Shown: in pieces, positions 19,708 to 62,896 of the stretch | Layout: each line of letters begins with the position of its first letter | Position numbering within the stretch: the stretch's first letter is position 1 | IMG/VR virus record: IMGVR_UViG_3300020193_000015 | Strand: one strand, 5' to 3' | Origin: a virus | Length of the DNA stretch: 64,000 nt | The notes under the pieces: generated by a model | Seen by the model: only the letters and a program-made list of their open reading frames with translations | Told to the model about the DNA's origin: nothing | Database searches by the model: none | Program-made: the position numbers and the translations under genes

Positions 19708-19751
19708 AGCAAGTGCAGGTATTTTAATTGTACCAAGTACCTGCACTTGCT
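19708..19751 (+). terminator. perfect 14-bp inverted repeat AGCAAGTGCAGGTA/TACCTGCACTTGCT with the 15-mer motif in its 16-nt loop, followed by a T-run
   Basis: read directly. Confidence 0.6.
19723..19737 (+). promoter_or_regulatory. conserved 15-mer TTTAATTGTACCAAG (copy 1 of 12)
   Basis: exact 15-mer; next ATG at 19786. Confidence 0.6.
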
Positions 19752-19785
19752 TTTTCTTAAAATTTAAATTACAAAGGAAATTAAT

Positions 19786-20550
19786 ATGAAAAAGCAAAAA
19801 AAAGACAAGCCTACTACGATTATTTCTGTAATTTTAGATAAAAGCGGAAGTATGGGCGGGCGTGAAAAAGAAATAGTAGCTGGATATAATGAACAAATCC
19901 AGCAAGCTAAATTAAGTTCTAAAGATCAAAATATATTGTTTAATTTGATTTCGTTTAATGGCGAGGTCAGCGAGCATCATTGGGGTCAAAAAGTAGAAGA
20001 ATTACAAGAAGCTACAGTTGAAGACTATCAACCTGAAGGATCAACAGCACTTAGGGATGCTGTAGGTTATACGATAGATAAACTGTTAAAGACTACAGAC
20101 CCAACTGATCCTAATGTTGCGTATTTAGTTATTATAATGTCTGATGGTGCCGAAAATGCATCTAGGCATTATTCTCCATATGAATTGCAAAGAGTTAAAT
20201 CGCAGGCAGAAGAACATAAAAACTTTACTTTCACCTATATGGGATGTTCAGAGGCAATTGTAAAACAAGTAGCTGCTGAATATTCTATACCGTTGTCAAA
20301 TTGTGCTGTTTGGAGTAATAACAGTGTAGGCAGTACAGAATTTGCATATAAGGCTAGTAATAAGAGAATGAGTGAAAAGTATCTTAGTGCTAGAAGTGTT
20401 GGCAAGGGTGTATTAAATGACGTATATAGTGATACAGGTGGCATGGCTAATTTTGCTCCTGAAGAGGCAGCAGATTCAGTTGTACCAGATGTATCAGTAG
20501 TAACACCTGATAAGTTTAATATAACCAATACTGTAGATGTTCAGGGTTAA
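19786..20550 (+). CDS. von Willebrand factor type A (vWA) domain protein
   Basis: MIDAS motif ILDKSGSM. Confidence 0.65.
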   Translation: MKKQKKDKPTTIISVILDKSGSMGGREKEIVAGYNEQIQQAKLSSKDQNILFNLISFNGEVSEHHWGQKVEELQEATVEDYQPEGSTALRDAVGYTIDKLLKTTDPTDPNVAYLVIIMSDGAENASRHYSPYELQRVKSQAEEHKNFTFTYMGCSEAIVKQVAAEYSIPLSNCAVWSNNSVGSTEFAYKASNKRMSEKYLSARSVGKGVLNDVYSDTGGMANFAPEEAADSVVPDVSVVTPDKFNITNTVDVQG

Positions 20551-20584
20551 ATAAAAAAGGAACCCCTGTGCAATGGACAAATAA

Positions 20585-21349
20585 ATGAAAAGTGACTTTG
20601 CAAAAATCGTAACGGAGAGGCCAAGAGCAGGGGGCGGCTATAAAAACCCAAAAGGTTGGAATGCCCGTTCTCAACATCGTACTGCCAATCAATGTGAACA
20701 GGAAAACTGGCCCAAAAGGGAAAAAATCCGACAAAAATGGCAGTCCAGTTTCGGTGAGAAACAATTCACCGATGTTCTTGGCCCTCTCTACGGTTATCTT
20801 TTAAAGCAAGTTGGGCGTCATTGGGATGATGTATTTTCCGAAATCTGCGAGAATCTACCAGCCAATAACACCAATACCAGCCATGTCAGGGACCACGTTT
20901 TCGATTTCGTTGAGGTTGACGTGGTTATGGTTGATGGCGTTCCTTGTTATCGCAGAAGCTTTGGAAAATATACTTGGTTAAAGAAACAAGAATGGACTCC
21001 CTTGAGCGTCTATGGAAGTCGCCAATTCCAATTGTATGTTAATCCCGAAAATGGTTTACTCTGCAAACTTGAGAAAAAGAAAGAAGTCAAGAAGGACAAA
21101 AAAGAAGGCAAAGGTGTCATTGTAGACGATACCCATCAATACCATAAGATTGATGGAGTTTGGTATCTGTTGGCACTTAAGATCGTTAACCGTCATCCTG
21201 AATATTACGAACTTTTCTATGATGTTGGTTACAAAAAGAACTTTCGTGACTCTGAAATGTTCCGCCATTATGGAAAACGTTGCTATTGCATTCACAAAAC
21301 TCAATTAAACAAACGACAAATCAAAAAGGCTAAATTAAATGGAGAATAG
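20585..21349 (+). CDS. hypothetical basic protein
   Basis: ORF track. Confidence 0.4.
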   Translation: MKSDFAKIVTERPRAGGGYKNPKGWNARSQHRTANQCEQENWPKREKIRQKWQSSFGEKQFTDVLGPLYGYLLKQVGRHWDDVFSEICENLPANNTNTSHVRDHVFDFVEVDVVMVDGVPCYRRSFGKYTWLKKQEWTPLSVYGSRQFQLYVNPENGLLCKLEKKKEVKKDKKEGKGVIVDDTHQYHKIDGVWYLLALKIVNRHPEYYELFYDVGYKKNFRDSEMFRHYGKRCYCIHKTQLNKRQIKKAKLNGE

Positions 21350-21764
21350 GCCATTAATAGGTGTCGCTACTTGTATTTTCAAAGACGGTCAAGTTTTATT
21401 AGGTTTGCGTAAAGGTAAGCATGCCAATAATACATGGGGATTTCCTGGCGGGCATCTTGAATTCGGAGAAAAAATAGAAGATTGTGCCAGAAGAGAAATA
21501 GCTGAAGAAGTTGATGTGGAAGTAAATTGTTTAAGTTTTATATCAGTTGTTGGCAATGTTTATGAAGAAGAAAATAAACATTATTTGACAATACTTTATA
21601 CAGCCAATTATGTTTCTGGTGATTTAACAGTAAAAGAACCAGATAAACACTTGGAATGGAAATGGTTTCCCATCTGTGATTTGCCAGAAAACTTAATGCC
21701 TCCTGCCAAGAAATTTTTGAAGGAACTTAGTAAAGATACTTTGTGTTCGGTTATAATTGAATGA
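21339..21764 (+). CDS. NUDIX hydrolase
   Basis: Nudix box GGHLEFGEKIEDCARREIAEEVDV. Confidence 0.75.
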   Translation: MENRPLIGVATCIFKDGQVLLGLRKGKHANNTWGFPGGHLEFGEKIEDCARREIAEEVDVEVNCLSFISVVGNVYEEENKHYLTILYTANYVSGDLTVKEPDKHLEWKWFPICDLPENLMPPAKKFLKELSKDTLCSVIIE

Positions 21765-21938
21765 CACAACAACAAAATTTTTTAAATTCTTTGGTTGAAA
21801 TGCTCAAGGCATTAAATGATGATGAGAGAACAGAAGTTTTAAATAATTTCTGTCGATCTTGCGGTACGTATATACAGAGTAGTGATTGGGCCGACTTGAA
21901 TTATTGTTATTCGTGTTCCCCTGACCCTAGAGAATAAC

Positions 21939-23731: not shown

Positions 23732-23746
23732 TTTAATTGTACCAAG
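23732..23746 (+). promoter_or_regulatory. conserved 15-mer TTTAATTGTACCAAG (copy 2)
   Basis: 8 nt upstream of ATG 23755. Confidence 0.6.
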
Positions 23747-24993: not shown

Positions 24994-25167
24994 ATGGTGC
25001 GAGCTTATTGGTCCCAAAATAAACTAATTGTTGAACAAGTTTCACCCGAAAAAGAGGCAGAATTGGCCGATTTTGTACAGGAAACCCTAGATTTGGTTGG
25101 CATAGCTGTATTTGAAGGTATGGCCTATTCAACCGAAGCAACTGCCAGAGAAAAGTTGGAATTTTAA
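24994..25167 (+). CDS. hypothetical 57-aa protein (below the ORF-track cutoff)
   Basis: manual translation MVRAYWSQNKLIVEQVSPEKEAELADFVQETLDLVGIAVFEGMAYSTEATAREKLEF; its TAA stop lies inside the 15-mer motif. Confidence 0.3.
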   Translation: MVRAYWSQNKLIVEQVSPEKEAELADFVQETLDLVGIAVFEGMAYSTEATAREKLEF

Positions 25168-25177
25168 TTGTACCAAG
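25163..25177 (+). promoter_or_regulatory. conserved 15-mer TTTAATTGTACCAAG (copy 3)
   Basis: next ATG at 25219, which has an AGGAG RBS. Confidence 0.6.
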
Positions 25178-25218
25178 AACCGGAATCAGAGTTAAAAATA
25201 ACAAAAAAGGAGCTAATC

Positions 25219-26133
25219 ATGCGTCAAATTAGTTTTATTGTCACAAATGATGGGTCTATCTGTGCCTTTGCTAATAACAAGGCTTTCCCTCCCATCGCCA
25301 AAGATCATCCCAAGTATAACCAAGTAAAACAAGCCATCAAAGATGACAATGTTGATGAACTTAGTAAGCTTGTGGATATTGTGCAGCAGATTATCAATTT
25401 CTCTGATGGCAAGGTTGAAATCAAGGATGGGGTAGTTTATTACAACGGTCAGGCAATGCATAACGTGTTGACTAATAGGATTATTGGTCTTATGCGTGAA
25501 GATTTCCCATTTGCCCCTGTAGTTAAGTTTTTTGATAACTTGATGCAGAACCCATCTAGTTCCTCTGTAAATGAGCTATACACGTTCCTAGAGCATCGTG
25601 CGCTACCTATTACGGAAGATGGTCATTTCCTTGCCTATAAGCACGTTAGGGACGATTGGACTGATATTTGGACTGGCAAGATTGATAATAGTGTTGGCAA
25701 GGTTGTTGAAATTATCAGGAACCAAGTTGACGATGACCGCAACAAGGGCTGTTCTTATGGTTTGCATTGTGGAACCATTGAATATGTTAAAAACTATTCT
25801 GGTTCTGGTTGCAATGATGGTGGTCATTACATCATTGTTAAGGTTAATCCCAAGGATGTAGTTTCTGTGCCGTTGGAATCAAATTGCACTAAGCTACGTA
25901 CTTGCCGCTATGAAGTCCTTGGCATTTATAGTGGTGATTTGGTTGCTCCGCTTTATAATAATATGGGTGGGCCTCCTACTACCTTTGATGACCCAGAGGA
26001 TGAAGAGGAAGAGTACGAAGATTTTGATTTGGATAACGAAGAAGAGGAAGAGGAAGAGGAAGACGTTTTGGAAGCTGAGTTAGTAGACCCAACGGATTCC
26101 GATCATAGGTCTTTTAACCCAAATAACAATTAA
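25219..26133 (+). CDS. hypothetical protein with a poly-acidic C-terminal tail (DEEEEYEDFDLDNEEEEEEEED)
   Basis: ORF track (25168 alternative start); GAA/GAG triplet-repeat tract around 25990..26080. Confidence 0.45.
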   Translation: MRQISFIVTNDGSICAFANNKAFPPIAKDHPKYNQVKQAIKDDNVDELSKLVDIVQQIINFSDGKVEIKDGVVYYNGQAMHNVLTNRIIGLMREDFPFAPVVKFFDNLMQNPSSSSVNELYTFLEHRALPITEDGHFLAYKHVRDDWTDIWTGKIDNSVGKVVEIIRNQVDDDRNKGCSYGLHCGTIEYVKNYSGSGCNDGGHYIIVKVNPKDVVSVPLESNCTKLRTCRYEVLGIYSGDLVAPLYNNMGGPPTTFDDPEDEEEEYEDFDLDNEEEEEEEEDVLEAELVDPTDSDHRSFNPNNN

Positions 26134-26351
26134 TGTCTAATAAACTTAATTTGACATTTGAACAATTGTGGGATACTTTTGTTTTGGCCAATCCTATAAT
26201 TGGTGAAGGTCAGGAAATAACTATACCCACATTATTGATAAAGCAATTATGTGAAGTATCTTACGAAATAGGCCAAACCTACGAAGAAATTGAAGATTTC
26301 CAGGCAGCAATTGATGAAATAGAACGTTTAAAAAAGAAATTAGAGGAATAG
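26133..26351 (+). CDS. hypothetical protein
   Basis: ORF track. Confidence 0.35.
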   Translation: MSNKLNLTFEQLWDTFVLANPIIGEGQEITIPTLLIKQLCEVSYEIGQTYEEIEDFQAAIDEIERLKKKLEE

Positions 26352-26353
26352 TT

Positions 26354-26569
26354 GTGCGTTGGATATTTATTTTAGTTTGTTTTTTAATTTGTTCTTGCAG
26401 TAATAATAGCGACAAGGATTCAGGCCGTTGCCGTTGCGAGAAACCGACACCGGGCCATCATTGCACTTGTTATGCAGATTGTACATGTAAAGAAAACGAT
26501 AAGTGCAAGAATTGGTATTGCACATGTAGTAAAAGCCCAACAGAAGGTAAACCTTGGCCTAAAAGGTAG
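26354..26569 (+). CDS. Cys-rich putative lipoprotein
   Basis: signal peptide plus lipobox ICSCSNN; 12 Cys in the mature part. Confidence 0.4.
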   Translation: MRWIFILVCFLICSCSNNSDKDSGRCRCEKPTPGHHCTCYADCTCKENDKCKNWYCTCSKSPTEGKPWPKR

Positions 26570-26777
26570 TTAAAATAATGTAAAAATGTTTCGCCCACAT
26601 TTTTTACACCATCTTTTACCTTTATAGGAACTTTTAAATAAAGGAAACCAAGTGCCACACCAAGGGCAACGAAGGGCAATTAAACCACCTAGAAAACTAA
26701 GTATAGCCATCAAAACTGTGAATCCCATAATTTATATATGAGCCGTTATAAAGTAAGTTAAAATAAGAGGAAACACA

Positions 26778-27470
26778 ATGTTGAATGAAAACAAGATGGA
26801 CCTTAATTTATTTTGCAATAATCCAATATCAGCGATAAGGGCTATTTTAGCATGGCATTGGGGCAATCCTTTAATTGGCGAAGGTAATCTTTCTAAAGAC
26901 TTAGTAAGGGGATTACGTCTTACTAATAAATTTTGCAATGGTGATACCGATAATTTTACTCAATGGGATTTTTGGATTTTTCTTGATGAAAATGGAAAGA
27001 AAAGATGTAGCAAATGTCAAATAACAAAAGATACAGAAGATTTTAAAACTTCCAATAATTCCAAAGATGGTTACAAATCTGCTTGTATGAGATGTGAAAA
27101 AAATAGTGATTTGCTGAGCCAATATGGTATAACTTTGAAGCAATATGAGGCAATAGAAAAGAATCAAAATCATTGTTGTGCTATATGTGAATCAAAAGAC
27201 TCAAAAATTCCTAGAAAACATAGAAAAACTAAAATAGATGTATTTTGTGTAGACCATGACCACGATACAGGCGAAATAAGAGGTTTACTTTGTTTTAATT
27301 GTAATACTGGATTAGGGCAGTTTAAAGATTCTGCCGATGTTCTGGGAAACGCTTTGTGTTATTTGAGGAAGTTTAATTGTACCAAGAACGAGAAAAGTTC
27401 AACGAACAATCAAATAGGAAATACAAATGATTTTGGTACAGAACCCATTGAATTTGGAAAAGTCTGCTGA
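26778..27470 (+). CDS. endonuclease VII-family HNH nuclease
   Basis: CAICE..VDHDHDTGEIRGLLCFNCNTGLG. Confidence 0.75.
   Translation: MLNENKMDLNLFCNNPISAIRAILAWHWGNPLIGEGNLSKDLVRGLRLTNKFCNGDTDNFTQWDFWIFLDENGKKRCSKCQITKDTEDFKTSNNSKDGYKSACMRCEKNSDLLSQYGITLKQYEAIEKNQNHCCAICESKDSKIPRKHRKTKIDVFCVDHDHDTGEIRGLLCFNCNTGLGQFKDSADVLGNALCYLRKFNCTKNEKSSTNNQIGNTNDFGTEPIEFGKVC
27372..27386 (+). promoter_or_regulatory. conserved 15-mer TTTAATTGTACCAAG (copy 4)
   Basis: lies within the 3' end of the 26778 CDS (FNCTK); next ATG at 27427. Confidence 0.6.
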
Positions 27471-29466
27471 TGTTAAGCCATCTACTTTTAGGATTAAAGC
27501 GTCTCAAAAAGCTTTTGCGATCTTGTCGTCTGGTTTATATTCAGATAAGGTGTCATCGACCATCCGTGAATTGTCTACCAATGCCGCTGATGCCCATATC
27601 GCTGCTGGCAACAAGGAATCTTTTACCGTTCATCTGCCCAATACCCTTGAACCATTTTTCTCCGTAAAGGACAATGGCACTGGACTTTCCGAACATCACC
27701 TTAATACCCTTTATACAACCTATTTTGAATCAGATAAAACTCATTCAAATGACTTTACTGGTTGCTTGGGATTGGGCAGTAAGAGTCCATTTAGCTATAC
27801 CGATCAATTCACCGTTGAAAGCCGATTCAATGGCAACAAGTATACCTATAGTTGCTTCATTGATCAGGATGGATTGCCTTCTATCGCCAAGATGGGTGAA
27901 GAAGTTACTGAAGAATCCAACGGTCTAGAAGTTAAGTTTGCTGTTAAAAGTTCTGATTTCTGGGAATTTCAGAATAAGGCATCAAATATTCTATCTTGGT
28001 TTAATCCTCAGCCTAATGTTGTTGGCGTTGCTGGGTTTGAACTTACGCAACGAGAATACATTAGGAAAACTGATAAGTATGCTCTCCGCAAGGAAAAGCA
28101 TTATGGTGATGCGAGCCGATTGATCATGGGTAATGTTGCTTATAAGCTGTCTACCTACAGTCTTGGCAACAAGGTTAGTTTGGATGAACTTGACCGGCAG
28201 ATTCTAGATTGGGGCTGTGAAATCTTTGTCCCAATTGGCACTGTTGAAGTAACTGCAAACCGTGAAGATATTACTTATACTGAAAATAGTGCTAAGGTCA
28301 TTAAGGAATGTCTTGCTGAAGCTGTCAAGGATGTTAGGGGAGAAATTGATAACATGATAGCTTCCGCTCCTACAATTTGGGAAGCTAGGCGTGTTCTCCA
28401 TGATTCTCACCATTCCATCATTGGCAAGATTAAGAATTTAACTTCTGCTACTTGGAATGGTCAGGAAATTCATAGTTATGTAAGTTCTGCCAAGTGGAAT
28501 GAAAAGAACCCTGACAAGGAAATTAATATTCAGTTTTTGCGACGTAAGAAGGAACGTTTCGCAAAGAGCAATGGGCATAGCCACATTCACGCTGATAACA
28601 AGCCCATTTATGTGAATGACTTGGGGCATGGTGGTTACACAAGGGTTTTGCATGATTTAAATAAGAAACGCACAGATGAAGCTTACTTGCTGCAAAACAA
28701 TAACGTAAGTTTCTTGGAAGAAGCTGGACTAAAAGAAATTGTAATTCGTGCTAGTTCTTTACCTAAGCCTGAAAGCAAGCGTTCTTATGTTCCACGTCGC
28801 AAGGGAGTAAGGGCACAGCTTAATCGTTGGGTTGAATCTCATTCCTATAAAAAAGAAGCTTGTTCATATTGGCAACCAGCTGACGTTGATTTGGAACAAG
28901 GTGGCATTTATGTAGAAATGTCTTACTATAAATATACGTTGTTTGGTAATGAAGGTAATAGCCCAGACGGTTTGGAGTCTACCATCAGCGCTTTGTCGGC
29001 TTTCCATGAATCTGAGGATGGAAAATTGGAAGTTTTTGGAATTCGTTCGGCTGATAAGAAGATTCTGGAAAAGATGGATAACTGGATTAGCCTTGACGAT
29101 TATATCAAGGAAGTTGTTGAAGCTAATGAATATCTTGATGCCACTATCAAGATGAATAATGAATGGACTCATTATCGTGACAATCTTGCCGAAGCTTTCT
29201 TTAATGATGATTTGAGTGAAAAAACCTTATTTGGCCGTTATGTGGAATATTGCAAAAAGGCTTACAAGGCTCATTCCAGTGAAAGTCGGGCATATATTAG
29301 ACTGTGCGGTTTGGTTAATAAGAACATTGGAACTGGAACTAAGTTAAAGGAAATGCGGGATGAATTGCAGGCCAAGTATCCTTTGATTAGTTTTCTTAGT
29401 TCTTACGATACTCCTTACAACAGTAAAACTTTTAAGGCAGCACTTTTGAAATATGTGAAGGAGTAA
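27427..29466 (+). CDS. GHKL-family ATPase domain protein (Hsp90/MutL/MORC-like ATP-binding fold)
   Basis: IRELSTNAADAH (N box-like), VKDNGTGL (G1-like), GCLGLGSKSPFSY (G2-like). Confidence 0.5.
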   Translation: MILVQNPLNLEKSADVKPSTFRIKASQKAFAILSSGLYSDKVSSTIRELSTNAADAHIAAGNKESFTVHLPNTLEPFFSVKDNGTGLSEHHLNTLYTTYFESDKTHSNDFTGCLGLGSKSPFSYTDQFTVESRFNGNKYTYSCFIDQDGLPSIAKMGEEVTEESNGLEVKFAVKSSDFWEFQNKASNILSWFNPQPNVVGVAGFELTQREYIRKTDKYALRKEKHYGDASRLIMGNVAYKLSTYSLGNKVSLDELDRQILDWGCEIFVPIGTVEVTANREDITYTENSAKVIKECLAEAVKDVRGEIDNMIASAPTIWEARRVLHDSHHSIIGKIKNLTSATWNGQEIHSYVSSAKWNEKNPDKEINIQFLRRKKERFAKSNGHSHIHADNKPIYVNDLGHGGYTRVLHDLNKKRTDEAYLLQNNNVSFLEEAGLKEIVIRASSLPKPESKRSYVPRRKGVRAQLNRWVESHSYKKEACSYWQPADVDLEQGGIYVEMSYYKYTLFGNEGNSPDGLESTISALSAFHESEDGKLEVFGIRSADKKILEKMDNWISLDDYIKEVVEANEYLDATIKMNNEWTHYRDNLAEAFFNDDLSEKTLFGRYVEYCKKAYKAHSSESRAYIRLCGLVNKNIGTGTKLKEMRDELQAKYPLISFLSSYDTPYNSKTFKAALLKYVKE

Positions 29467-30847: not shown

Positions 30848-33800
30848 ATGTCGCAATTTAAGACAGTTGAGAATTTTAAGGATATTTTAATGTTAAAAGA
30901 AAAAACTACTTTGCGATCCTATCAGCTGCTTCTATTAGATAATCATGATTTAGTAGAAAAGACGATAGATGTTTATACAAAAGGAGCTTCTGCTTGGTTG
31001 GACTTTTGGCTTACTGTTTTGGGCGGTATAGAATTTGAGATGATTCCATTATCTCCTCTTAGCAGTTATTGTATTACTAAAAAATTAAAGAGGAAATCCC
31101 AAGAAGATAAAGAAATATTTATTCCTATTAGCGAAGAAGCTTTATTGTTTGGCTGTTGGTTTTCTTTAGAAACGAATAGCAATTCGCCATTCATTATTTC
31201 TGTTCAAGATGTTTGGAACAAGTTCAAATCTTATCTGCCGAATAATGTGAAAATAAGCTACAATTGGGAAAGAACTATCAAAGCACAAATTAATTCCTTT
31301 GTGTCTGAGAATACTTGTTGGGTAGATAGAAGAAAAGCATTTCAAGACCTATCATTTAAAATTAATGTTGCTGATCTTGTTTGTAAAAAAGATTTTTGGC
31401 TTAATAAAGATGTGGATAGCAAATTGTATATGAGAAGTGCCTTGGGGCAATGGTGGAATGATGGAACAAAATCAGATTGGGTTAATCTTAAAATTAAATG
31501 TGAACAGTCTATAAAATTTATCGAACAAGAATCAGATATCAGAAATGCAAAAACAAAAATTCTACAATCTCTTGGATTGCCAGATATAGCAGAAGCTAAA
31601 GAAATTGGCAAAGCTTATGGCAAAAAAGGAAAGCCTTCCAGAGTGTTTATTAAATTGGAAAAATTAACAGAAGATACTACCAAAGACCAATTGGTTAAGG
31701 AATTTCAAGAAGAAATTGTAAACGCAGAAGAACATGTTGCTTTTAAGCGTTGTCCCTGGCATGCGAAAATTAGAGAAAACATTGAAAAAGCAATAGGTGT
31801 AAGTTATTTTAATGAAAAAGGTAATAGTAGTCAAAATAATTTTGGAGAAATGGGCAATCTTGCTCTTGAAAAAATTAAAAGTTGGAAATCTAATTTTTTT
31901 AATGTCTTAGGAGAAAGATATCATAACTGTAAATCTGATTTCCATGATTCAGAGGTAAAAGAATGGTTTGAAGAATACAAAAAAACAAACAAACAACTTA
32001 GAAATAGCAGCCTTTCAGGACTTGAAAAAGTATTTGATTTACTAGATAACAAGTCTTTTGAAGATGCTATTAAAGAAGCCCAAAAATCCTACAACATTCT
32101 TGGAAGAAGATTTGGAGACGCTAACTTTTTCAACTTTTTAGGCAATAAAATTCAGTCCAGAAAGGACAAAGATTGGTTGAAATTAATACGAGAATATGAT
32201 AATTGGGATAATGTAAATTACAAATTTATAAATCATAAAAGTCCAAGACTTAAGCATTTTGGGGATGATCACTTAGCCACTCCTAGATTTGGGGAGTCAA
32301 GACCAACAGGCAATATCAAAAGCACAACTGGAAATAGTCACTCAATTACATTGAATGTTTTCGATGGCAAATCATTCAAACTGACTAAAATTAATTCTGC
32401 TTGCAAAAGATTGTCTAATGAAATTAAAGATAATCAATCAATTAGACAGACTAAGTTATCTGGAAAAATCTTTGAAAACTATCGAATTCTTCCTAAGAGT
32501 TTAGTTAAAAAGGGTGGACTTAAACTTTGTAAACAAAATGATAAATGGTATGCCCATCTAACAGTCAATTTGCCAGTATTTGAAAAAGCTTCATGGCAAA
32601 AATTGATGAAAACCGGCACCATAATAATGAGTATAGACCCTGGTATTAGAAGTTCTATATCATATACTATATTTGAAATATTTGAATGTGATCGAGATAC
32701 AGATTATTTTATTGAAAATGGCATTACTCATGTGAAAATACATTCATGGGAAGATCATAGTGGTACTAAGTTTAAAGTGCCTCATAATAATTTGTGGGTT
32801 AAATTGTTGGAATGGGGACATATTCGTGATCTACAACCTATTGGCGAAAATGGTTATCGTCAGTGCAGATTAGATGGTGGAACAAACACCAATTTAGACT
32901 CAGAAGAAATAGAATTTTGGAAATATCTTTTAATAACTGGTGTTGAGCAAAAAGACATGCCTGATCCTTTGCCAAAAAGGTCTGAATATTCTAGAATTAT
33001 TGCAAATTTAATTAACAAGTGGTATACAAACAAATCAAAAGAAATTACAGATAAGGTTAAACAACTAAATATTAATGATCCTGTAGAGTTTTCAAAAACT
33101 TTACAACATGTAAGAAAAGAAAGCGATTTATCATCAGAATTATTGATAAAGGCGTCCCAAATATTATTTGTAAATAATTCAGATAAAATTGGGAGAGGCG
33201 GGTTATCCTATGCTAGAATTAAGATGCTCCAAACACTTTCTTCTGCTTGTAATAAATTCTTAAAAGTTAAAGAAAATAATGCAGAAATTATTGAATTTCA
33301 GAATTTTCTTAGAAAGAAAATTAATGCCATAAGAACGGAACGAGTAAGAATTACTGTAAACAAAGTTTTGCATGAAGCTGTCAATAACAAAGTAAATCTA
33401 ATTCTATATGAAAATACCCAACTAAAATCTTCTTCCAGTTCCCCCAGAGGTCTTAATAGAAGTATAACATCCTGGTGCCCGTCAAAAGTAATCGAAGAAT
33501 TGAAAAAACAAATAGATTTGTTGCCAATTTCTATAATGGGAGTAAACTCTGCTTATACGTCTCATAACTGTTTTGTAACTTGCAAGAAAAAATGTCGTTA
33601 TGATAAAGTTCATTTAGATGATCTTAATATTGAGCCTTGGAAAGAAAGAATAACCGATATTTTTACAAAAAAACAATTAAGCTTAACTGATTGTTTGTTG
33701 AAAAAAGGTTGGGAAAATTTCCTGAAAGAAAATGACTTGATGAGCTACAAACAAATACCTGAATTTGTTAAAAACAAAAAAGCTTTTTGTTTAGTTCCCT

Positions 33801-33910
33801 CCAGGACAGGAAAATTGTTTGTTACAGAAATTGGAGAATTGAATGCTGATATCGCCGCTGCTGCTACAATAGGAATGAAAGGTCTTGCAATAATCCTATC
33901 CAAAGCTTAA
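30848..33910 (+). CDS. cas12: type V CRISPR effector, Cas12-like (1020 aa; size and repeat suggest the Cas12i-like compact class)
   Basis: split RuvC motifs in TnpB/Cas12 order: RuvC-I MSIDPGIRSS (D about 32636), RuvC-II LILYENTQL (E about 33410), Cys-containing stretch SHNCFVTCKKKC, RuvC-III ELNADIAAAATIGMKGL (D about 33849); a 26-repeat array follows directly. Confidence 0.75.
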   Translation: MSQFKTVENFKDILMLKEKTTLRSYQLLLLDNHDLVEKTIDVYTKGASAWLDFWLTVLGGIEFEMIPLSPLSSYCITKKLKRKSQEDKEIFIPISEEALLFGCWFSLETNSNSPFIISVQDVWNKFKSYLPNNVKISYNWERTIKAQINSFVSENTCWVDRRKAFQDLSFKINVADLVCKKDFWLNKDVDSKLYMRSALGQWWNDGTKSDWVNLKIKCEQSIKFIEQESDIRNAKTKILQSLGLPDIAEAKEIGKAYGKKGKPSRVFIKLEKLTEDTTKDQLVKEFQEEIVNAEEHVAFKRCPWHAKIRENIEKAIGVSYFNEKGNSSQNNFGEMGNLALEKIKSWKSNFFNVLGERYHNCKSDFHDSEVKEWFEEYKKTNKQLRNSSLSGLEKVFDLLDNKSFEDAIKEAQKSYNILGRRFGDANFFNFLGNKIQSRKDKDWLKLIREYDNWDNVNYKFINHKSPRLKHFGDDHLATPRFGESRPTGNIKSTTGNSHSITLNVFDGKSFKLTKINSACKRLSNEIKDNQSIRQTKLSGKIFENYRILPKSLVKKGGLKLCKQNDKWYAHLTVNLPVFEKASWQKLMKTGTIIMSIDPGIRSSISYTIFEIFECDRDTDYFIENGITHVKIHSWEDHSGTKFKVPHNNLWVKLLEWGHIRDLQPIGENGYRQCRLDGGTNTNLDSEEIEFWKYLLITGVEQKDMPDPLPKRSEYSRIIANLINKWYTNKSKEITDKVKQLNINDPVEFSKTLQHVRKESDLSSELLIKASQILFVNNSDKIGRGGLSYARIKMLQTLSSACNKFLKVKENNAEIIEFQNFLRKKINAIRTERVRITVNKVLHEAVNNKVNLILYENTQLKSSSSSPRGLNRSITSWCPSKVIEELKKQIDLLPISIMGVNSAYTSHNCFVTCKKKCRYDKVHLDDLNIEPWKERITDIFTKKQLSLTDCLLKKGWENFLKENDLMSYKQIPEFVKNKKAFCLVPSRTGKLFVTEIGELNADIAAAATIGMKGLAIILSKA

Positions 33911-36080: not shown

Positions 36081-36216
36081 TCCAAGCAGCAACATTCCTG
36101 ATCGTTTAGCTGAAATTTATAGTAAAGATGATCCTGTGCCGCCTCAAGTATGGGAAGCAGTTAAAGAAGTCCGAAAAGGAATGGGCATGATGTGGCATTA
36201 CGCAGGAGATTAATTT

Positions 36217-37450: not shown

Positions 37451-37638
37451 TAACAAGTGATGATCCTCTTACTGCAAAATTGATAAAGCTTTTGAACCGG
37501 GCACATGATATAATATGGCTCAATGCTTTAGAACCTATTTATAAAGAAGAGGTTTTGTCACAAGCAGAAATTGAAGCTTTTCTGATGGAAGTTGAGGAAG
37601 TAATATATAAGCCAAACCCAAAAGCCCCTGTAGTTTAA
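37429..37638 (+). CDS. hypothetical protein
   Basis: ORF track. Confidence 0.3.
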   Translation: MVREKLMITSDDPLTAKLIKLLNRAHDIIWLNALEPIYKEEVLSQAEIEAFLMEVEEVIYKPNPKAPVV

Positions 37639-37697
37639 TTGTGCAAAACGTGCTACTTTAGATAGCTAAGATGTGGGTTCGAATCCTGCCAGGGGCG
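37624..37697 (+). tRNA. tRNA with anticodon UUA (candidate ochre/amber suppressor tRNA)
   Basis: manual cloverleaf: acceptor GCCCCTG/CAGGGGC, D-stem GTTT/AAAC, anticodon stem TGCTA/TAGCT with loop CTTTAGA, variable loop AAGAT, T-arm GTGGG-TTCGAAT-CCTGC, discriminator G; unusual G at position 37. Confidence 0.55.
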
Positions 37698-39682: not shown

Positions 39683-39693
39683 ATAGGTATTAA

Positions 39694-39937: not shown

Positions 39938-40489
39938 ATGAATGATTATCTTAAAACAATCAAGCTAGGATTTGGCAAAGGCAAAAGGGGAGAACAAGGA
40001 TGTTGGATGAGGGTGTTCCACATTGCAGATACTGTTATTAGAGAGTGGACGCCAACTGTGTTAAGAAATTATTGGCACGGTTTACGGATCGGTTGTCCAA
40101 TGCACCTTTTATATCAAAAAATTGCTGATAAATTAGAAGAAATGCCTAAAATTTCAAAAGAAACATCTAAACTTTATCGTGTTTTAGATACTTTAAATGA
40201 AATGGAAATTAAAGAATTAAAATCTGCAAAAACTATTATTATGGCTGCATGTTTTCTTTCCATTAAACATAGTCGTATAATGTGTGATGGCATTGCCGAT
40301 TCCGTTGTTGGCACATTTCCTTGGCCTTGGTTAGAATTGAATGCCGACCGTGATCATAGAAAATACCTAAAGACCAAAGTTTACCCATTGTTAAGAGAAC
40401 TAATCGAAATGGGACCACATGCACCAAAAGAATCAGAATATCCTGCTTGTGGTGTACAAAAGTTCAAGGAAGCGGTGGGAATAGTTTAA
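39938..40489 (+). CDS. paralog B2 (MNDYLKTIKLGFGKG..CWM.. module; C-terminal LRELIEMGPHAP..YPACG shared with B1)
   Basis: sequence comparison; the ORF track starts at 39875. Confidence 0.5.
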   Translation: MNDYLKTIKLGFGKGKRGEQGCWMRVFHIADTVIREWTPTVLRNYWHGLRIGCPMHLLYQKIADKLEEMPKISKETSKLYRVLDTLNEMEIKELKSAKTIIMAACFLSIKHSRIMCDGIADSVVGTFPWPWLELNADRDHRKYLKTKVYPLLRELIEMGPHAPKESEYPACGVQKFKEAVGIV

Positions 40490-40499
40490 TTGTACCAAG
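40485..40499 (+). promoter_or_regulatory. conserved 15-mer TTTAATTGTACCAAG (copy 5)
   Basis: contains the TAA stop of the 39938 gene; ATG at 40503 and 40508. Confidence 0.6.
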
Positions 40500-48231: not shown

Positions 48232-48447
48232 ATGGCAGCAAGAGAACTAGACGCAAAAAGAGAACTTAAAAGACTGCAAATAGTCAGCAGAAGCCAAACT
48301 GCGCAATTTAACAATATGGTCAGATTGGCAAATGCTGTAGCCCAAGAAAACGCTAATTTAAAAAAAGCTATTGGAGAATTGATTAAAGTCAAATCAGATC
48401 ATCCAAATTACGAAAAAGTAGTAGCTGCTGCAAAAGCACTACTTTAA
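48232..48447 (+). CDS. hypothetical protein
   Basis: ORF track; its TAA stop lies inside the 15-mer motif. Confidence 0.35.
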   Translation: MAARELDAKRELKRLQIVSRSQTAQFNNMVRLANAVAQENANLKKAIGELIKVKSDHPNYEKVVAAAKALL

Positions 48448-48457
48448 TTGTACCAAG
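48443..48457 (+). promoter_or_regulatory. conserved 15-mer TTTAATTGTACCAAG (copy 6)
   Basis: 6 nt upstream of ATG 48464. Confidence 0.6.
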
Positions 48458-49530: not shown

Positions 49531-49569
49531 GGTTGATTTATCTTGAAATTTAGTATATAATTATTTCAT

Positions 49570-49640
49570 GGCCCCATAGCTTAAGAGGAAAGCAGGGTGC
49601 TTATAACGCCAAGACGGTAGTGCGACTCTACCTGGGGCTA
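49570..49640 (+). tRNA. tRNA-like gene, anticodon UAU by manual fold (atypical T-loop TGCGACT, G1-U72)
   Basis: acceptor GGCCCCA/TGGGGCT, D-stem GCTT/AAGC, anticodon stem GGTG/CGCC with loop CTTATAA, T-stem GGTAG/CTACC; a TATATAAT promoter-like box lies just upstream. Confidence 0.4.
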
Positions 49641-50213: not shown

Positions 50214-50228
50214 TTTAATTGTACCAAG
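50214..50228 (+). promoter_or_regulatory. conserved 15-mer TTTAATTGTACCAAG (copy 7; no plus-strand gene follows; abuts the 3' end of a minus-strand HNH gene)
   Basis: read directly. Confidence 0.5.
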
Positions 50229-50232: not shown

Positions 50233-50943
50233 TTAGGCAACAATTGAAATTAAAGCAGTGGAATTTATTTCCCATAAGTTGTGGTCTAACTCCCAATGAC
50301 AATTTCTACATAAAGATATAAGATTGCTGAGTTGATTTATGTCATTAACAATTGTTTCCTTGGGAAAACTCCGTATTGGCTTAATGTGGCAGACTTCGTA
50401 GTGTTTATCATAACCACATTTGACGCAATATTTTGGTAGACTTGATTCTCTGTATTTTGTCCTAGCGTGTTCTCTTATTCTCGCATAGATTTGGTATTTG
50501 TATTTATAATGAAATTCTTTTATAGCTATTTTACCAAGACTCTCTAATGAAATTTTATTTGTTTCTGGTTTATTCGTTATGCATTTTTCGCAATATTTTT
50601 TCCTCGAAGCAATAGGGTCATTACAGACACGGCAATAACCTTTAGGCTTTCGTTTTGGGCAATGAACATTAGTATGTATTGCGCAGCATCTAGAGGAACA
50701 GAATTTGGGGTTTAAAGTTGGTTTTTCACAAAGATGGCATGGATGAAGTTTTCTATAATGTCTTGAAACATCAGTATTGAATATTTCTTTTATTGCATTA
50801 GCCCATGAACCGAATCTATTTTTAATTGTTGTTCTGGCATATTGGCCTAATTTGTCATAATGTTTTGAAGTAGGTATTTTATTTATTTGTTCAAAAACTA
50901 ATTTTATATCTTCGGCTATTTGTTCTTTGGTTAATCTATACAT
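50233..50943 (-). CDS. HNH homing-type endonuclease
   Basis: C-terminal CVKCGYDKHYEVCHIKP..NLISLCRNCHWELDHN; additional upstream Cys clusters. Confidence 0.65.
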   Translation of the reverse strand: MYRLTKEQIAEDIKLVFEQINKIPTSKHYDKLGQYARTTIKNRFGSWANAIKEIFNTDVSRHYRKLHPCHLCEKPTLNPKFCSSRCCAIHTNVHCPKRKPKGYCRVCNDPIASRKKYCEKCITNKPETNKISLESLGKIAIKEFHYKYKYQIYARIREHARTKYRESSLPKYCVKCGYDKHYEVCHIKPIRSFPKETIVNDINQLSNLISLCRNCHWELDHNLWEINSTALISIVA

Positions 50944-51038
50944 ATTATATTAGAGTGCCATTTCGATTTTTATAAGGAGTATTTTATAAAAATTTTGTTT
51001 GAAAAAAGTAAAGTATGTGATATAATATATTATTAAAT

Positions 51039-52511: not shown

Positions 52512-52904
52512 ATGAACGAACGAATTAACTTATCTGATACTCCTATTAGTGCCATTACCAAGCTATGTGAAGGTAATCCAGGGGCATTAACTGTACTTGC
52601 CAATATCTTAAAAGAGGGTGGCAAGATTGATCCTGATGCTGGATTCGGTGAACCATTCTTTATAATCCTTAATTTCGATAGTTATAATATCTATGGGCCT
52701 AGAATTTGGATGTTGTATAAGGATGTATGCGAACAGAAGCTTGATAAAACGATTGCGATGGTAAGAGCTACCCAAATGGGGTTTATTAGTGCAAGTAAAT
52801 TAAATTTTGCAATCGACAATGGTGGGGCTGGATTAGACGTTGAGGCTGTTTGTAAGCAAGTAAAAGAACGTTTGCCTAATTTTCAATTCAAAGAAGAAGT
52901 TTAA
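52512..52904 (+). CDS. hypothetical protein
   Basis: ORF track; its TAA stop lies inside the 15-mer motif. Confidence 0.4.
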   Translation: MNERINLSDTPISAITKLCEGNPGALTVLANILKEGGKIDPDAGFGEPFFIILNFDSYNIYGPRIWMLYKDVCEQKLDKTIAMVRATQMGFISASKLNFAIDNGGAGLDVEAVCKQVKERLPNFQFKEEV

Positions 52905-52913
52905 TTGTACCAA
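52899..52913 (+). promoter_or_regulatory. conserved 15-mer TTTAATTGTACCAAG (copy 8)
   Basis: next ATG at 53033; an 11-bp wobble-containing inverted repeat (ATGCGTCCAGA .. TCTGGATGCGT) lies in between. Confidence 0.55.
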
Positions 52914-53032
52914 GAAGGTTAAAACCCCTCCTAATGCGTCCAGATTAGCTTATAATAAGTTTTGTAAGTTAAAATGAGATTCGGATCGTTAAATGGGTCT
53001 GGATGCGTTATAATTGAATTTAAAGGGATAAA

Positions 53033-54054: not shown

Positions 54055-54069
54055 TTTAATTGTACCAAG
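54055..54069 (+). promoter_or_regulatory. conserved 15-mer TTTAATTGTACCAAG (copy 9)
   Basis: 7 nt upstream of ATG 54077. Confidence 0.6.
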
Positions 54070-54775: not shown

Positions 54776-54982
54776 TTGTTAACTGCTTCCAAAAAGGCGC
54801 TAAAGGATTGCCCATTTTGTGGCCGAAGTCCTATTACTATTTGCACAGTGAACGATAAAACGGGAATATACGGATGTCAAGTAACTTGCGATGTATTTTG
54901 TGGTATTAGTTTATTTTTTAGTGCTTATGATAGAGAAACAGCAAGAAAAGGTGCAATTGAAAGGTGGACTAAGAGAATATGA
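54776..54982 (+). CDS. hypothetical Cys-rich protein
   Basis: ORF track. Confidence 0.35.
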   Translation: MLTASKKALKDCPFCGRSPITICTVNDKTGIYGCQVTCDVFCGISLFFSAYDRETARKGAIERWTKRI

Positions 54983-55821
54983 ACGTTGATGATTTAGGTT
55001 CACGCATGAAACTTTTTGAAGGACAGACTGAAGGAAATTTAATTCCTATGCTTCCTGCAATGTGCCGAATTGATGGAAGATCGTTTTCTAGTTTCACAAT
55101 GGGACTTCGCAGACCATATGATGAACGTCTTTCTAAGTTAATGGTTGATACTACTAAATTTTTGGTCAAAGAGACTTGTGCAACTTGTGGTTATACTCAG
55201 TCGGATGAAATTACTTTATCGTGGTATCACCCTACAATGCAAACCCAGATGTTTTTTGATGGTAGAATCCAAAAAATCAATTCTGTGGTCGCCAGCATGA
55301 CCTCTGTTTACTTTATTTCGCAGATTTTAACTAATGATGCATTGCCAATTGAATATGCTGCTAAATTGCCTCATTTTGATTGTAGGGTTTGGAATGTACC
55401 CAAATTAGAAGAAGCAGTTAATTGTTTCATGTGGAGAGAGTGGGATTGTACCAAAAACTCAGTTTCAATGGCTGCGCAAAATTACTACAAGCACAAAGAA
55501 TTAATGGGCAAGCACAGCGGAGAACTCCAAGAATTGCTTTTTCAAAAAGGGATCAATTGGAATGATTATAACAGGCATTTCAAGAGGGGGACTTTTGTTC
55601 AAAGACGAAAAGTAATTAAAAAGTTTTCGGCTATGGATATTGAAGCTTTGCCCCCAATGCATGAAGCTAGACTTAATCCAAATTTAATGGTAGAAAGAAG
55701 TGAAATTCAAGAACTTGATATGCCGCCTTTTATTAAAGTGACCAACAAGGCAGATGTAATTTTTAACGGTGCTGAACCTTTGACAGAATTTAATTGTACC
55801 AAGGAAAGCCATGAAAACTAA
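54979..55821 (+). CDS. Thg1-like protein (tRNA-His guanylyltransferase / 3'-5' polymerase family)
   Basis: [34 protein letters not shown] and [20 protein letters not shown] match conserved Thg1/TLP blocks. Confidence 0.7.
55789..55803 (+). promoter_or_regulatory. conserved 15-mer TTTAATTGTACCAAG (copy 10)
   Basis: inside the Thg1-like C-terminus (FNCTK); 7 nt upstream of ATG 55811. Confidence 0.6.
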
Positions 55822-57026: not shown

Positions 57027-57041
57027 TTTAATTGTACCAAG
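57027..57041 (+). promoter_or_regulatory. conserved 15-mer TTTAATTGTACCAAG (copy 11)
   Basis: 21 nt upstream of ATG 57063. Confidence 0.6.
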
Positions 57042-61071: not shown

Positions 61072-61079
61072 TTATAGAT

Positions 61080-61568
61080 ATGGTTATGAAATTTAAAGAG
61101 TGGTTTAGATTAGATGAAGGATTGCAGATCATACACATTGATCCAGAAGAGGATTGGGAGTATGGGGAGCAGGCTTATCAGATAGCTAAGATGGTAAATA
61201 TTCGTCCATCACGGAACAAGAATCCTACGATAATTGCCTTAAACGACAAATCGGAGGTAATTGGTGCGGCATTTACGTCATGGGAGGACGATCATGATGC
61301 TACGCAAGAGGCAGGGGAGCCGATAGCTCATTATGATTTTGATGTTGTGGTACATCCATCGTGGCAGGGATATGAGATGGTGGGGATGAAGTTGATACGT
61401 CAGGCGGAATTAGAGCGTAAGAATTTAGAATCACAATATGGTCAGAAGGCATATACACGAACTTGGGTAGTGAATCCGAAGTTAGCTAGGGTATTACAGA
61501 CGCCACGCTATGGATACGAGGCAGATTCCGAGTATTCTGATGGTTCTGCTCATTTGAGGAAGTGGTAA
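61080..61568 (+). CDS. hypothetical protein
   Basis: ORF track. Confidence 0.4.
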   Translation: MVMKFKEWFRLDEGLQIIHIDPEEDWEYGEQAYQIAKMVNIRPSRNKNPTIIALNDKSEVIGAAFTSWEDDHDATQEAGEPIAHYDFDVVVHPSWQGYEMVGMKLIRQAELERKNLESQYGQKAYTRTWVVNPKLARVLQTPRYGYEADSEYSDGSAHLRKW

Positions 61569-61759
61569 TGTTTAAAAAATGGTTAGAGAATGAGGAATTA
61601 GTGCAATAAAAACGAAATGCACGAAATGTCACTCATTCAATTGTCTTTATTTGAAGATGGTCGTCTATTTGCATGACGGTCATCATCGTGTTGTATCGAC
61701 GTTTCTGGCGGGGCGGAAAGAACTCGATCCATCCGAATATCATGTCACCAATTGGACCT

Positions 61760-62470
61760 ATTCGGTAGGCATTAAGGCTCCTTATAGGCCACGGACGATT
61801 TGGCGGAAGTGGTCCACGTCTTCACGGCTGTCCTGGATTTGTCCTTCAAGGAAAATCTCAAGCCACTGCCCATCAACGCCTCCTAACTCGTCAGAGTCAC
61901 GCATACGCTTGACGTAGTTGGTGACTACCTCTTCTTCCATCGTCAAGGCATACCGAAGTATATCCTTCGGGTCCGTCATGAGGGGGAAACTATTGCTTTC
62001 TTCCGTGGCTTTTCCACCCAGGCCCACGATCACGTCCGAGAAGGCCGTAACGTGAAGCATCTCGCCAGCGGCTTCTTTGAGGAATAATTCCTTGTATTCC
62101 TCGCAGTGGAGGCCCTGGACGGCGCTGGCGTGATACAGGTAGAAGCGAAGATGCTTCCACTCGTTCTTGAGATCGTCGTTCAGCAAGTCAATCATCTGTT
62201 GCTTGTTCATTCTTTTCTTTACTTTCCAAAGGGCGTCGTGCCGTGGTCGTGGGAGTATTCCATTTCCTTGAAACCGCCGTAGTTGAACGACGGCCTTTCG
62301 TTGGATTGGGCGACTTGCCAAGCCAACTCAAAAGCGTAGCACGCCACGCTTTGAATGCCCGCCATGTTGATCCGGTCAACCGTGTCGCTAGGCGTATGGT
62401 AGGCACTGATGCATCTGAAATTGAACCAGATCATTACCATCGTTTCCCCGGATTTCATGGCGATGGCATT
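61760..62470. other. GC-rich segment of foreign (bacterial-like) composition inserted in AT-rich phage sequence
   Basis: abrupt composition change visible by eye; carries minus-strand ferritin-like and peptidase-fragment ORFs; flanking plus-strand phage ORF pieces (61651.. and ..62896) lie in different frames. Confidence 0.5.
61782..62210 (-). CDS. ferritin-like (bacterioferritin/Dps-type) protein
   Basis: IDLLNDDLKNEWKHLRFYLYHASAVQGLHCEEYKELFLKEAAGEMLHVTAFSDVIVGLGG follows the ferritin-like diiron helix pattern; start taken at MNKQQ (the ORF track extends to 62321). Confidence 0.5.
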   Translation of the reverse strand: MNKQQMIDLLNDDLKNEWKHLRFYLYHASAVQGLHCEEYKELFLKEAAGEMLHVTAFSDVIVGLGGKATEESNSFPLMTDPKDILRYALTMEEEVVTNYVKRMRDSDELGGVDGQWLEIFLEGQIQDSREDVDHFRQIVRGL

Positions 62471-62473
62471 CAA
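62219..62473 (-). pseudogene. 3' fragment of an M28-family peptidase gene
   Basis: YHTPSDTVDRIN motif; the 5' part is missing at the segment boundary. Confidence 0.4.
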
Positions 62474-62896
62474 GGGACTAAATTAACTCCAAAGGTAAAT
62501 GTTGAGCATTCTTATATTGTAACGACTGCTCCAGCTACAGAGTTTTGCTTGCAACCATTCTTCCTTAAACATTTGGATGAAGCAAAGCATAATTTCTTTT
62601 TGGAATTTGACAAGCAAGCCAAAAAAGATAACATTTATACATCTTTACCGGGGCATTTGTATCTGATTGATCCTTATATGGTTCATAGGACACCTAAGAT
62701 TACTAAAAAGTGCAGAAGGGTATTCGTCAGGATTACATATGCATTTACTGAATTGCAACATCCTAAAAATACTGTGAACCCTATGTTTGAAGGGCAGCAA
62801 TATGAAAAAAGGGTGGATATCAGAGAAAATCTAACACCTTTTGAATTTGCTGTGCCTTATCATCTGTATGGAATTAATTGTACCAAGAAAGCGTAG
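62470..62896 (+). CDS. C-terminal portion of a phage gene apparently split by the GC-rich insertion
   Basis: AT-rich coding continuation of ORF 62243..62896 after the patch; the putative N-terminal piece is 61651..about 61765. Confidence 0.3.
62873..62887 (+). promoter_or_regulatory. 15-mer variant ATTAATTGTACCAAG (copy 12)
   Basis: followed by a perfect 10-bp hairpin AGAGAATCAC..GTGATTCTCT, then ATG 62976. Confidence 0.5.

Follow-up and report, generated by a model that had tools for sequence, protein, structure and literature searches.

What reads a short sequence that a phage repeats, almost letter for letter, at the ends of its genes and between them? The question is raised by a 64,000-nt stretch of IMG/VR virus record IMGVR_UViG_3300020193_000015, hereafter the window, which is a piece of a large uncultivated freshwater phage with 35% G+C and with nearly all of its genes on the plus strand. 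Within it, the 15-mer TTTAATTGTACCAAG occurs in 11 exact copies and in one copy with a single mismatch (ATTAATTGTACCAAG, position 62873), as a first-pass annotation of the window had reported, and all are on the plus strand. From its sequence, placement and history in related phages, we propose that the 15-mer may be the core recognition element of a phage-directed class of promoters, a reading that we rate a little above even.

Counting the motif and placing it relative to gene starts, a check that the annotation itself had suggested, was carried out within the window. At up to two mismatches, 0.46 occurrences of TTTAATTGTACCAAG are expected by chance, and 12 copies were reached in none of 100 shuffled sequences. 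No copy with exactly two mismatches exists in the window, and at up to three mismatches nine additional matches compare with 5.4 expected by chance. Because two-mismatch copies are missing and the three-mismatch count is near chance, the motif lacks a degenerate halo, and its recognition appears to be all-or-none. The information content is 1.3-2.7 bits per position within the 15-mer and falls below 0.7 bits directly outside it. The flanks had been described as unconserved except for a purine-rich 3′ side, and this is borne out, with R at +16/+17 in 10 of the 12 copies and T never at +18/+19; this purine richness is independent of a nearby ATG.

The copies are as biased in position as in strand. 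All 12 are intergenic or lie within the final 100 nt of a gene, a category that comprises 32% of positions (p ~1e-6), which agrees with the placement first described. Three copies are located inside the 3′ ends of upstream genes, and the TAA of the motif serves as the stop codon of four upstream open reading frames (ORFs; ends at 25167, 40489, 48447 and 52904), matching the earlier count of at least four. The distances from the 15-mer to the next ATG are 6, 7, 7, 8, 8, 21, 40, 41, 48 and 118 nt. The annotation had counted six ATGs within 3-8 nt; such short spacing does exist, but for five ATGs (23755, 40508, 48464, 54077 and 55811), all 6-8 nt past the end of the motif. Its list of copies was likewise accurate apart from one coordinate, 52899, which should read 52900.

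The comparison set consisted of rIIA loci, 87 of them taken from JGI metagenomes and GTDB genomes and 80 from IMG/VR, and of several contigs retrieved by exact-protein look-up; we called a sigma-70-type promoter wherever at least 9 of 12 positions matched TTGACA-N16-18-TATAAT. Such a promoter is present upstream of rIIA in 126 of the 161 loci outside the window's clade; median positions are -73 for the beginning of the -35 element and -39 for the predicted start (interquartile range -41 to -37). In L200, it is part of a repeated cassette, AGTACTTGACA, with 15 copies, and many phages outside the clade are alike in this respect. Among the seven loci closest to the window (L130, L131, L132, L134, L136, L220 and L221), six have no sigma-70 match of at least 9/12 at all, and none of the seven has one in the -100 to -50 slot; L136 shows a 10/12 match from -100 (score 10.5 with spacer bonus). 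In the promoter's stead, the clade carries a block with a GTAC(C/T) core 31-55 nt 5′ of the rIIA ATG, and a block of this kind precedes rIIB as well. L131 deviates in part, with full motif copies approximately 200-270 nt upstream of rIIA and a bare GTACT at -37. A rough neighbour-joining tree built on the rIIA N-terminus, without the later-fetched L220 and L221, groups the motif loci in one clade whose sister is a sigma-70-type locus. The clade also differs in gene order: rIIB precedes rIIA in the window (25219-29466) and in L131, L133, L135, L136, L220 and L221, whereas most relatives have rIIA before rIIB, as does T4.

The motif is uniform inside each genome and differs between genomes, at orthologous sites before rIIB and rIIA, and at least 10 related lineages carry such a variant of their own at an orthologous position. 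Compared with TTTAATTGTACCAAG and its 12 copies in the window, the variants are YTTAAYTGTACCAAGAGGGT in L130 (2 copies), AAACCnnTCGTACCATGAAA in L131 (6), TTAGGnTTTAGTACCAGAG in L136 (5), CTTAGCTGTACC(G/T)AG in L220 (3) and CTTAGTTGTACCAGT in L221 (3), the last two from contigs of 373 and 390 kb, together with GAATGAAACYYTGTACCA in L300 (5) and GCGTAAGCCGTACTRGAA in L301 (6, three of them 5-7 nt before an ATG). Variation is concentrated on the 5′ side and the GTAC core is constant; tandem copies occur upstream of rIIA and rIIB in relatives. A weak GTACC upstream of rIIB in L135 was judged uninformative. The rIIA of L130 is only 48% identical to that of the window, and the 14-15-mer is nevertheless retained. 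This retention, together with the variants at orthologous sites, supports the annotation's view that the motif would be recognized sequence-specifically, and also speaks for strong selection. A constant core joined to a variable specificity region is the pattern expected of a cis element that co-evolves with a polymerase or sigma factor, and because the block takes the -10/start slot of the relatives' promoter, is deeply conserved and varies lineage by lineage, it fits a promoter with a co-evolving trans factor.

The same placement could be explained on RNA. Every copy lies on the coding strand and between cistrons, as would a linear site in a polycistronic early mRNA at which an endoribonuclease or an RNA-binding protein acts in processing, destabilisation or translation control, by analogy with T4 RegB/RegA or with the Cluster K start-associated sequence (SAS). 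Five of the 12 copies stand 6-8 nt before an ATG, where AAG and the following purines could be or overlap a ribosome-binding site, spacing is equally short in L301 and L074, and the scarcity of sigma-70-like promoters is compatible with long processed transcripts. Half of the copies, however, are 21-118 nt from the ATG and thus have no fixed relation to the start codon; three are within upstream coding regions, so that cleavage would destroy those mRNAs; and one falls within a terminator loop, past which transcripts should be scarce. The mean unpaired probability at the 15-mer is 0.43 compared with 0.44 at random sites, which shows no accessibility bias, and no RNA structure is consistent over the 12 copies. 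Tandem copies are hard to explain as cleavage sites, and to our knowledge, the protein RNases described so far recognize far shorter motifs. An RNA-level site would also leave the clade's missing sigma-70 promoter in this slot unexplained. We consider it unlikely, though not negligibly so. A promoter, by comparison, accommodates any ATG distance of at least 6 nt, tandem copies, sites within upstream genes and a site in a terminator loop.

If the 15-mer is a promoter, it is not one of the familiar kinds. A host sigma-70 promoter consists of a TTGACA-like -35 and a TATAAT-like -10 element spaced by 16-18 bp. The flanks of the 15-mer hold less than 0.7 bits, and among the matches listed from a scan of positions 1-59000, which places copy 62873 outside, no plus-strand site overlaps a copy; the listed sigma-70-like matches that share bases with a copy, 25167-25195 and 54059-87, lie on the opposite, minus strand. 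Sigma-70-like sites are not enriched in the window over shuffles. Were the 15-mer itself a -35 element, the start would fall inside the five genes whose ATG is 6-8 nt away, and the thioredoxin-like N-terminus (MKLLFFSAPGCGPC) fixes the start at 23755. T4 middle promoters combine a MotA box at -30 with a TAnnnT -10 element 11-13 bp downstream and depend on the motA and asiA genes; the 15-mer has no conserved downstream -10 element, the five ATGs are too close, and the window contains no Pfam match to MotA or AsiA. T4 late promoters carry TATAAATA at -10 and use gp55 and gp33; this sequence occurs once on the plus strand of the window, within a gene, is unrelated to the 15-mer, and no gp55-like match was found in the window. 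By inspection, the Bacteroidetes -7 box (TAnnTTTG) and the archaeal TATA box are unsuited in sequence and geometry; the annotation, too, had seen no match to the sigma-70 or the Bacteroidetes consensus. Two readings outside transcription were also rejected: mimicry of a tRNA D-arm, for which the suppressor tRNA of the window matches 12 of 15 positions, as expected at chance level (nine matches at three mismatches versus 5.4 expected), and restriction-site logic, for which GTAC would have to be depleted and has an observed/expected ratio of 0.94.

Single-block promoters of the T7, SP6 and Syn5 type come closer. They are strictly conserved blocks of 15-23 bp on the coding strand upstream of genes, and the 15-mer is such a block. 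The promoter of the Syn5 RNA polymerase is exactly defined and 15 bp long (PMC3950665). The T7/SP6/Syn5 promoters and phage sigma promoters share with the 15-mer a short near-exact coding-strand block without -35/-10 structure, a conserved core with a lineage-specific part in relatives and purine richness just downstream. As a point of difference, the window has yielded no gene for a cognate polymerase or sigma factor. The 15-mer is unrelated to any promoter that we know, and we are aware of no such class described for T4-like phages.

The closest published look-alike is the Cluster K SAS, a 13-bp asymmetric repeat with 11-19 copies in one orientation in the non-structural half of the genome, which often includes the upstream stop codon a few nt before an ATG (PMC3203893). 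Virtually all SAS copies, however, are 3-7 bp from the start codon and contain an AGGAG Shine-Dalgarno core (PMC3203893), whereas only five of the 12 15-mers are at 6-8 nt, the others are up to 118 nt away, AGGAG is lacking, and the relatives are equally spread.

Comparison with the Cluster A stoperators of L5 raises a different possibility, namely that the 15-mer is a DNA site for a phage regulator and not the promoter itself, acting as an orientation-dependent stoperator-like roadblock or as an activator box. Stoperators are asymmetric 13-mers, more than 20 per genome, located in short intergenic spaces with an orientation that tracks transcription (PMC9283540), and the 15-mer is likewise asymmetric, in one orientation and in short intergenic spaces. 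Being multicopy and stop-overlapping as well, it bears the hallmarks of the L5 type (PMC9283540, PMC3203893), and lineage variants would suit co-evolution with a DNA-binding protein. Stoperators, however, belong to temperate phages, whose immunity repressor binds them and halts elongation, and they occur alongside ordinary promoters (PMC9283540), whereas the 15-mer replaces the promoter of its relatives, and neither a repressor nor an integrase or other lysogeny module was detected in the window of a phage that looks T4-like and lytic. A roadblock needs promoters, and there are none in the relatives' promoter slot nor between 19751 and the next ATG; for an activator box, a core promoter should follow at a constant distance, yet the downstream flanks conserve none and five ATGs lie too near. 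A regulator site seems to us quite improbable.

Repeated elements before small ORFs in plastic regions are also known from T4-type phages as promoter early stem-loop (PeSL) cassettes of tens of bp, which combine a sigma-70 early promoter with a stem-loop in a composite of terminator and promoter (PMC2839356, PMC4122927). The 15-mer resembles them in this placement and in that copy 1 lies within a terminator hairpin, but it has neither sigma-70 hexamers nor a conserved stem, and the PeSL-like repeats of the window are separate. These comprise a hairpin family, GTGCCGTTCTATTCTTACGGGGATAGAAGGATGCAC, with plus-strand members of approximately 44 nt each at 8702, 56200, 56562, 56964, 57795, 57875 and 59663, which show compensatory changes between copies and of which several directly follow a TATAAT, and a 47-nt exact repeat, ACTATAATAATTTATTATGCCTGTCCAGAGGCTATAGTATCTGGAAG, at 1913-1959 and 8608-8654, which contains a TATAAT box and a hairpin and lies upstream of genes for a Fringe-like glycosyltransferase and an indoleamine 2,3-dioxygenase (IDO). 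Because these separate TATAAT-plus-hairpin cassettes are present, host-type promoters seem to exist in this phage, and the 15-mer would then be a second class.

In T4-type phages, shuffling reportedly takes place through repeated regulatory cassettes (PMC2839356, PMC4122927), which brings in the idea of a DNA site unrelated to expression: a recombination hot spot bounding cassettes, as proposed for PeSLs, a strand-specific nick site or a homing-endonuclease site. The 15-mer does bound small-ORF cassettes, and one copy abuts an HNH endonuclease gene; nick sites of strand-specific type exist in some phages. Fifteen bp, however, is too short for efficient homologous recombination, the flanks share nothing, and an endonuclease is the neighbour of only one of the 12 copies. 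The presence of variants at orthologous sites over relatives with 48% identity points instead to a trans-recognized element tied to gene starts, and we judge this explanation very improbable. The annotation had named a promoter, an RNA-processing site and a recombination site as candidates, and this proposal is supported in part: by its occupation of the sigma-70 slot, the promoter appears best supported, RNA processing stays on the list, and recombination has gained no support of its own.

In a phage-directed promoter, the 15-mer would have a factor of its own. A search of the approximately 113 ORFs of the window against Pfam and PHROGs, covering the best 25 of 43 matched families for the ORFs of the first 25 kb, gave no match to sigma factors, RNA polymerase, MotA, AsiA or gp55-like proteins. 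The same databases gave no sigma or RNA polymerase match for the ORFs of L212 and L221, and a T7-like RNA_pol match was absent from the window ORFs and from 19 kb of what is probably the same phage. L301 does encode a 326-aa protein with a Sigma70_r2 domain (27.8 bits against a cutoff of 24, E = 2.3e-6), and its gene has a copy of L301's own motif variant 56 nt upstream. L301 thus shows that a phage sigma factor is available in this group; phage sigma factors are often autoregulated from the promoter class that they serve. A 345-aa ORF at 18663-19700 was compared with the L301 sigma factor and shows no similarity to it. We also considered as a candidate factor a 254-aa protein (20585-21349) from a family of approximately 50 members without a Pfam domain, which among the compared loci occurs only in the clade and directly follows rIIA in L220 and L221; the protein could be an enzyme or a binding protein, judging from its invariant residues (E, R, H, H, Y, P and W).

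Several points weigh against a phage-directed promoter. One is the empty search of the window for a polymerase or specificity factor, and a homologue of the L301 sigma factor was detected neither in the window nor in any other locus compared. A T4-like phage would be expected to use the host RNA polymerase, and the promoter classes of T4 are unlike the 15-mer. Fifteen invariant positions are stricter than most sigma-dependent promoters. One clade member of higher G+C, L133, carries a different, hairpin-shaped repeated element in 11 copies over 13.7 kb: an imperfect hairpin with a conserved loop, TAACCCCCAC-N4-CCCTAGTGGGGTGT, located 37-62 nt before nearly every ATG and followed by a conserved ribosome-binding region, CTGACGAAAGGAG. 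As the clade equivalent of the 15-mer, this hairpin could equally be an element of RNA processing or stability, and its position approximately 30 nt before ribosome-binding sites and its RNase III-type resemblance speak for an RNA-level site. In addition, the gene calls in the window are heuristic and the relatives are metagenomic fragments.

From the arrangement of the sites, we infer how a phage-directed promoter of this kind would work. The machinery that reads the 15-mer would do so on duplex DNA and in one direction only, and would not be the host sigma-70 holoenzyme in its unmodified form; candidates for the reader are a phage factor of the sigma family or another specificity factor acting on the host RNA polymerase, or a phage RNA polymerase. 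The motif would initiate transcription at or a few nt past the 3′ end of the 15-mer, between AAG and approximately 7 nt beyond. Genes with an ATG 6-8 nt past the motif would then have very short leaders or none: a start in AAG would give a leader of 9-11 nt with AAGRR as the Shine-Dalgarno sequence, and a start approximately 7 nt downstream would give a leaderless mRNA. Genes 21-118 nt away would use a Shine-Dalgarno sequence of their own.

The individual copies, all on the plus strand, show the range of these contexts. Copy 1 (19723..19737) falls within the loop of a terminator-like hairpin, and the ATG of a VWA-domain gene (19786) follows 48 nt on. The annotation had noted a perfect 14-bp hairpin here, and folding returns it as the minimum-free-energy structure, a 14-bp inverted repeat on the plus strand (19708..19751) with a T-run behind it, in what resembles a composite of terminator and promoter; because only approximately 35 nt separate the hairpin from the next ATG, there is too little room for a separate promoter. 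Copy 2 (23732..23746) fills a 29-nt intergenic gap 8 nt 5′ of the ATG of the thioredoxin-like gene (23755). The rII genes follow the next two: copy 3 (25163..25177) ends a 57-aa ORF with its TAA, 41 nt before the rIIB ATG (25219), and copy 4 (27372..27386) is within the final 98 nt of the endonuclease VII gene, with the rIIA ATG (27427) 40 nt on. Copies 5 (40485..40499) and 6 (48443..48457) both supply the upstream stop with their TAA; the distance to the next ATG is 8 nt for the former (40508, an AAA/clamp-loader-like gene) and 6 nt for the latter (48464).

Copy 7 (50214..50228) is followed, as had been noted, by no plus-strand gene; its neighbour is a reverse-oriented HNH endonuclease gene (50233-50943), which we read as a mobile insertion, and plus-strand genes resume near 51037. 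Copy 8 (52900..52914) again provides an upstream stop, and its ATG (53033) is the most distant, 118 nt on. Copy 9 (54055..54069) lies in a 26-nt intergenic gap and copy 10 (55789..55803) within the final 32 nt of the Thg1-like gene, each 7 nt before an ATG (54077 and 55811). Copy 11 (57027..57041) is 21 nt before ATG 57063 and 20 nt 3′ of a member of the separate hairpin-repeat family. Copy 12 (62873..62887), the variant ATTAATTGTACCAAG, is in the final 23 nt of an ORF and has a hairpin of 10-12 bp behind it, the second motif-hairpin pair that the annotation had pointed out.

Lake Tanganyika assemblies contain fragments identical to the window, and exact-protein look-ups for the remaining genome returned only such fragments. 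No INPHARED phage matched the window at the nucleotide level or by tblastn, a single-protein rIIA scan of IMG/VR found no close relative, and a full-text literature search with the motif sequence found only unrelated PCR primers. Exact 15-mer matches in IMG/VR were mostly single chance matches, with L074 alone real. From the same lake series, an IMG/VR contig of 85 kb holds two further exact 15-mers in a plus-strand cluster of small ORFs, with ATGs 6 and 11 nt downstream, the distances recorded for L074, and an adjacent cluster with gp46/47, ribonucleotide reductase, CTP synthase and a T4-type terminase is without the 15-mer. Because this contig has the same G+C, lacks CGCG and carries exact motif copies, it is probably another part of the window's phage. 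The genome is probably larger than 200 kb, of which approximately 85 kb is covered in all. A T4-like phage is suggested by gp46/47, the rII genes and the T4-type terminase. CGCG is fully absent from the window (0 observed versus 25.6 expected) and from L212, 19 kb probably of the same phage, and GCGC is halved, which suggests avoidance of a CGCG-specific restriction system.

Genes identified in the window are rIIA, rIIB, endonuclease VII, a thioredoxin-like gene, an AAA/clamp-loader-like gene, a Thg1-like gene (54979-55821), an ADP-ribosylglycohydrolase, IDO and TnpB; NUDIX and RNA-ligase-like genes are also present, and a Macro gene is found in L126, just upstream of the window. The IDO homologue (8732-9850; Pfam IDO, E = 5e-58) is unusual in a phage. 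A tRNA with anticodon UUA, an ochre (UAA) suppressor, is encoded at 37624-37697 (57 bits in Rfam), followed by an HNH endonuclease gene at 37730-38197; despite this suppressor, TAA is the commonest stop in the window (61 of 113 ORFs). A second tRNA (49570-49640; 53.6 bits in Rfam, missed by ARAGORN) is preceded by a good sigma-70-like promoter, TTGATT-17-TATAAT, at 49533-49561. L212 encodes a class II (B12-dependent) ribonucleotide reductase with an intein-splicing domain at 10707-13346. TnpB/Cas12f-like (OrfB_IS605) genes are present in the window (16416-17588), in L131 (5772-6923) and in L212 (9323-10636 and 17182-17910); the window and L131 copies are 57% identical, and one L212 copy apparently splits the T4-type terminase large-subunit gene.

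The window also contains a type V CRISPR-Cas locus, with a 1020-aa ORF at 30848-33910 and an array at 34260-36081. The ORF has no Pfam or PHROG match and is matched by the PADLOC Cas12i (E = 4e-24) and Cas12b models. The array consists of 26 repeats of GTTGCAATAGATTAAAACAATGTGCTGTTATTGGCAC, the last with one mismatch, and of spacers of 35-39 nt in addition to three truncated ones (25, 15 and 25 nt); several spacers exceed 60% G+C, compared with 35% for the phage. No adaptation genes were seen near the locus, and assemblies of the same phage break at the array. A solitary partial repeat, GATTAAAACAATGTGCTG-CTGGCAC, lies at 39658-39684, 3.6 kb past the array and between two ORFs; it shares 18 identical nt with the array repeat and retains the 3′ hairpin, though with another loop. 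It may be an orphan RNA resembling a CRISPR RNA or an RNA that regulates cas, and its 'spacer' side matches nothing elsewhere in the window.

With a Cas12i-like gene, a 26-repeat array, an orphan repeat and a TnpB-like gene at hand, the 15-mer could be the target of an RNA-guided protein that binds without cleavage and thereby regulates transcription, through a T-rich protospacer- or transposon-adjacent motif (TTTA/TTN) and partial pairing over approximately 11-12 nt. The motif starts with TTTA/TTA, and its exact conservation and sharp edges are as expected from base pairing. The spacers, the 'spacer' of the orphan repeat and the region downstream of tnpB, however, share at most 7 nt with the motif, the reverse complement of TTTAATTGTACCAAG is absent from the window, arrays were not seen in the available DNA of relatives with motif variants, and the motif varies on its 5′ side, where an adjacent motif should stay constant. 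We find this explanation barely credible.

Taken on its sequence, the 15-mer is real and strongly selected, and it is most probably a clade-specific promoter core. A bolder version, which we put forward tentatively and think rather doubtful, is that T4-like phages from freshwater and other environments, large to huge in size (up to 390 kb), dropped host sigma-70 early promoters as an entire clade, in favour of an undescribed single-block system with a GTAC(C/T) core, served by a new family of phage sigma factors or appropriators or by a new phage RNA polymerase, whose specificity co-evolves per lineage, and with the genes at 6-8 nt being leaderless. In a more exotic variant, the block would be read by an RNA-guided regulator derived from Cas12 or TnpB. 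Should the motif instead act on RNA or as a roadblock, it would represent the first case of its kind beyond the actinobacteriophages. If the 15-mer is a promoter, its copies would mark out the genes of a single temporal or regulatory class in large phages of an uncultivated clade, and the at least eight motif versions with a GTAC core would be natural specificity variants to pair with candidate factors such as the L301 sigma, as a way to a new promoter/factor system. Stringent, compact 15-bp promoters with orthogonal variants would also offer parts for synthetic biology. For the phages themselves, it would mean that host-type early promoters can be exchanged completely in a T4-like lineage, which bears on how far large phages are independent of host transcription.

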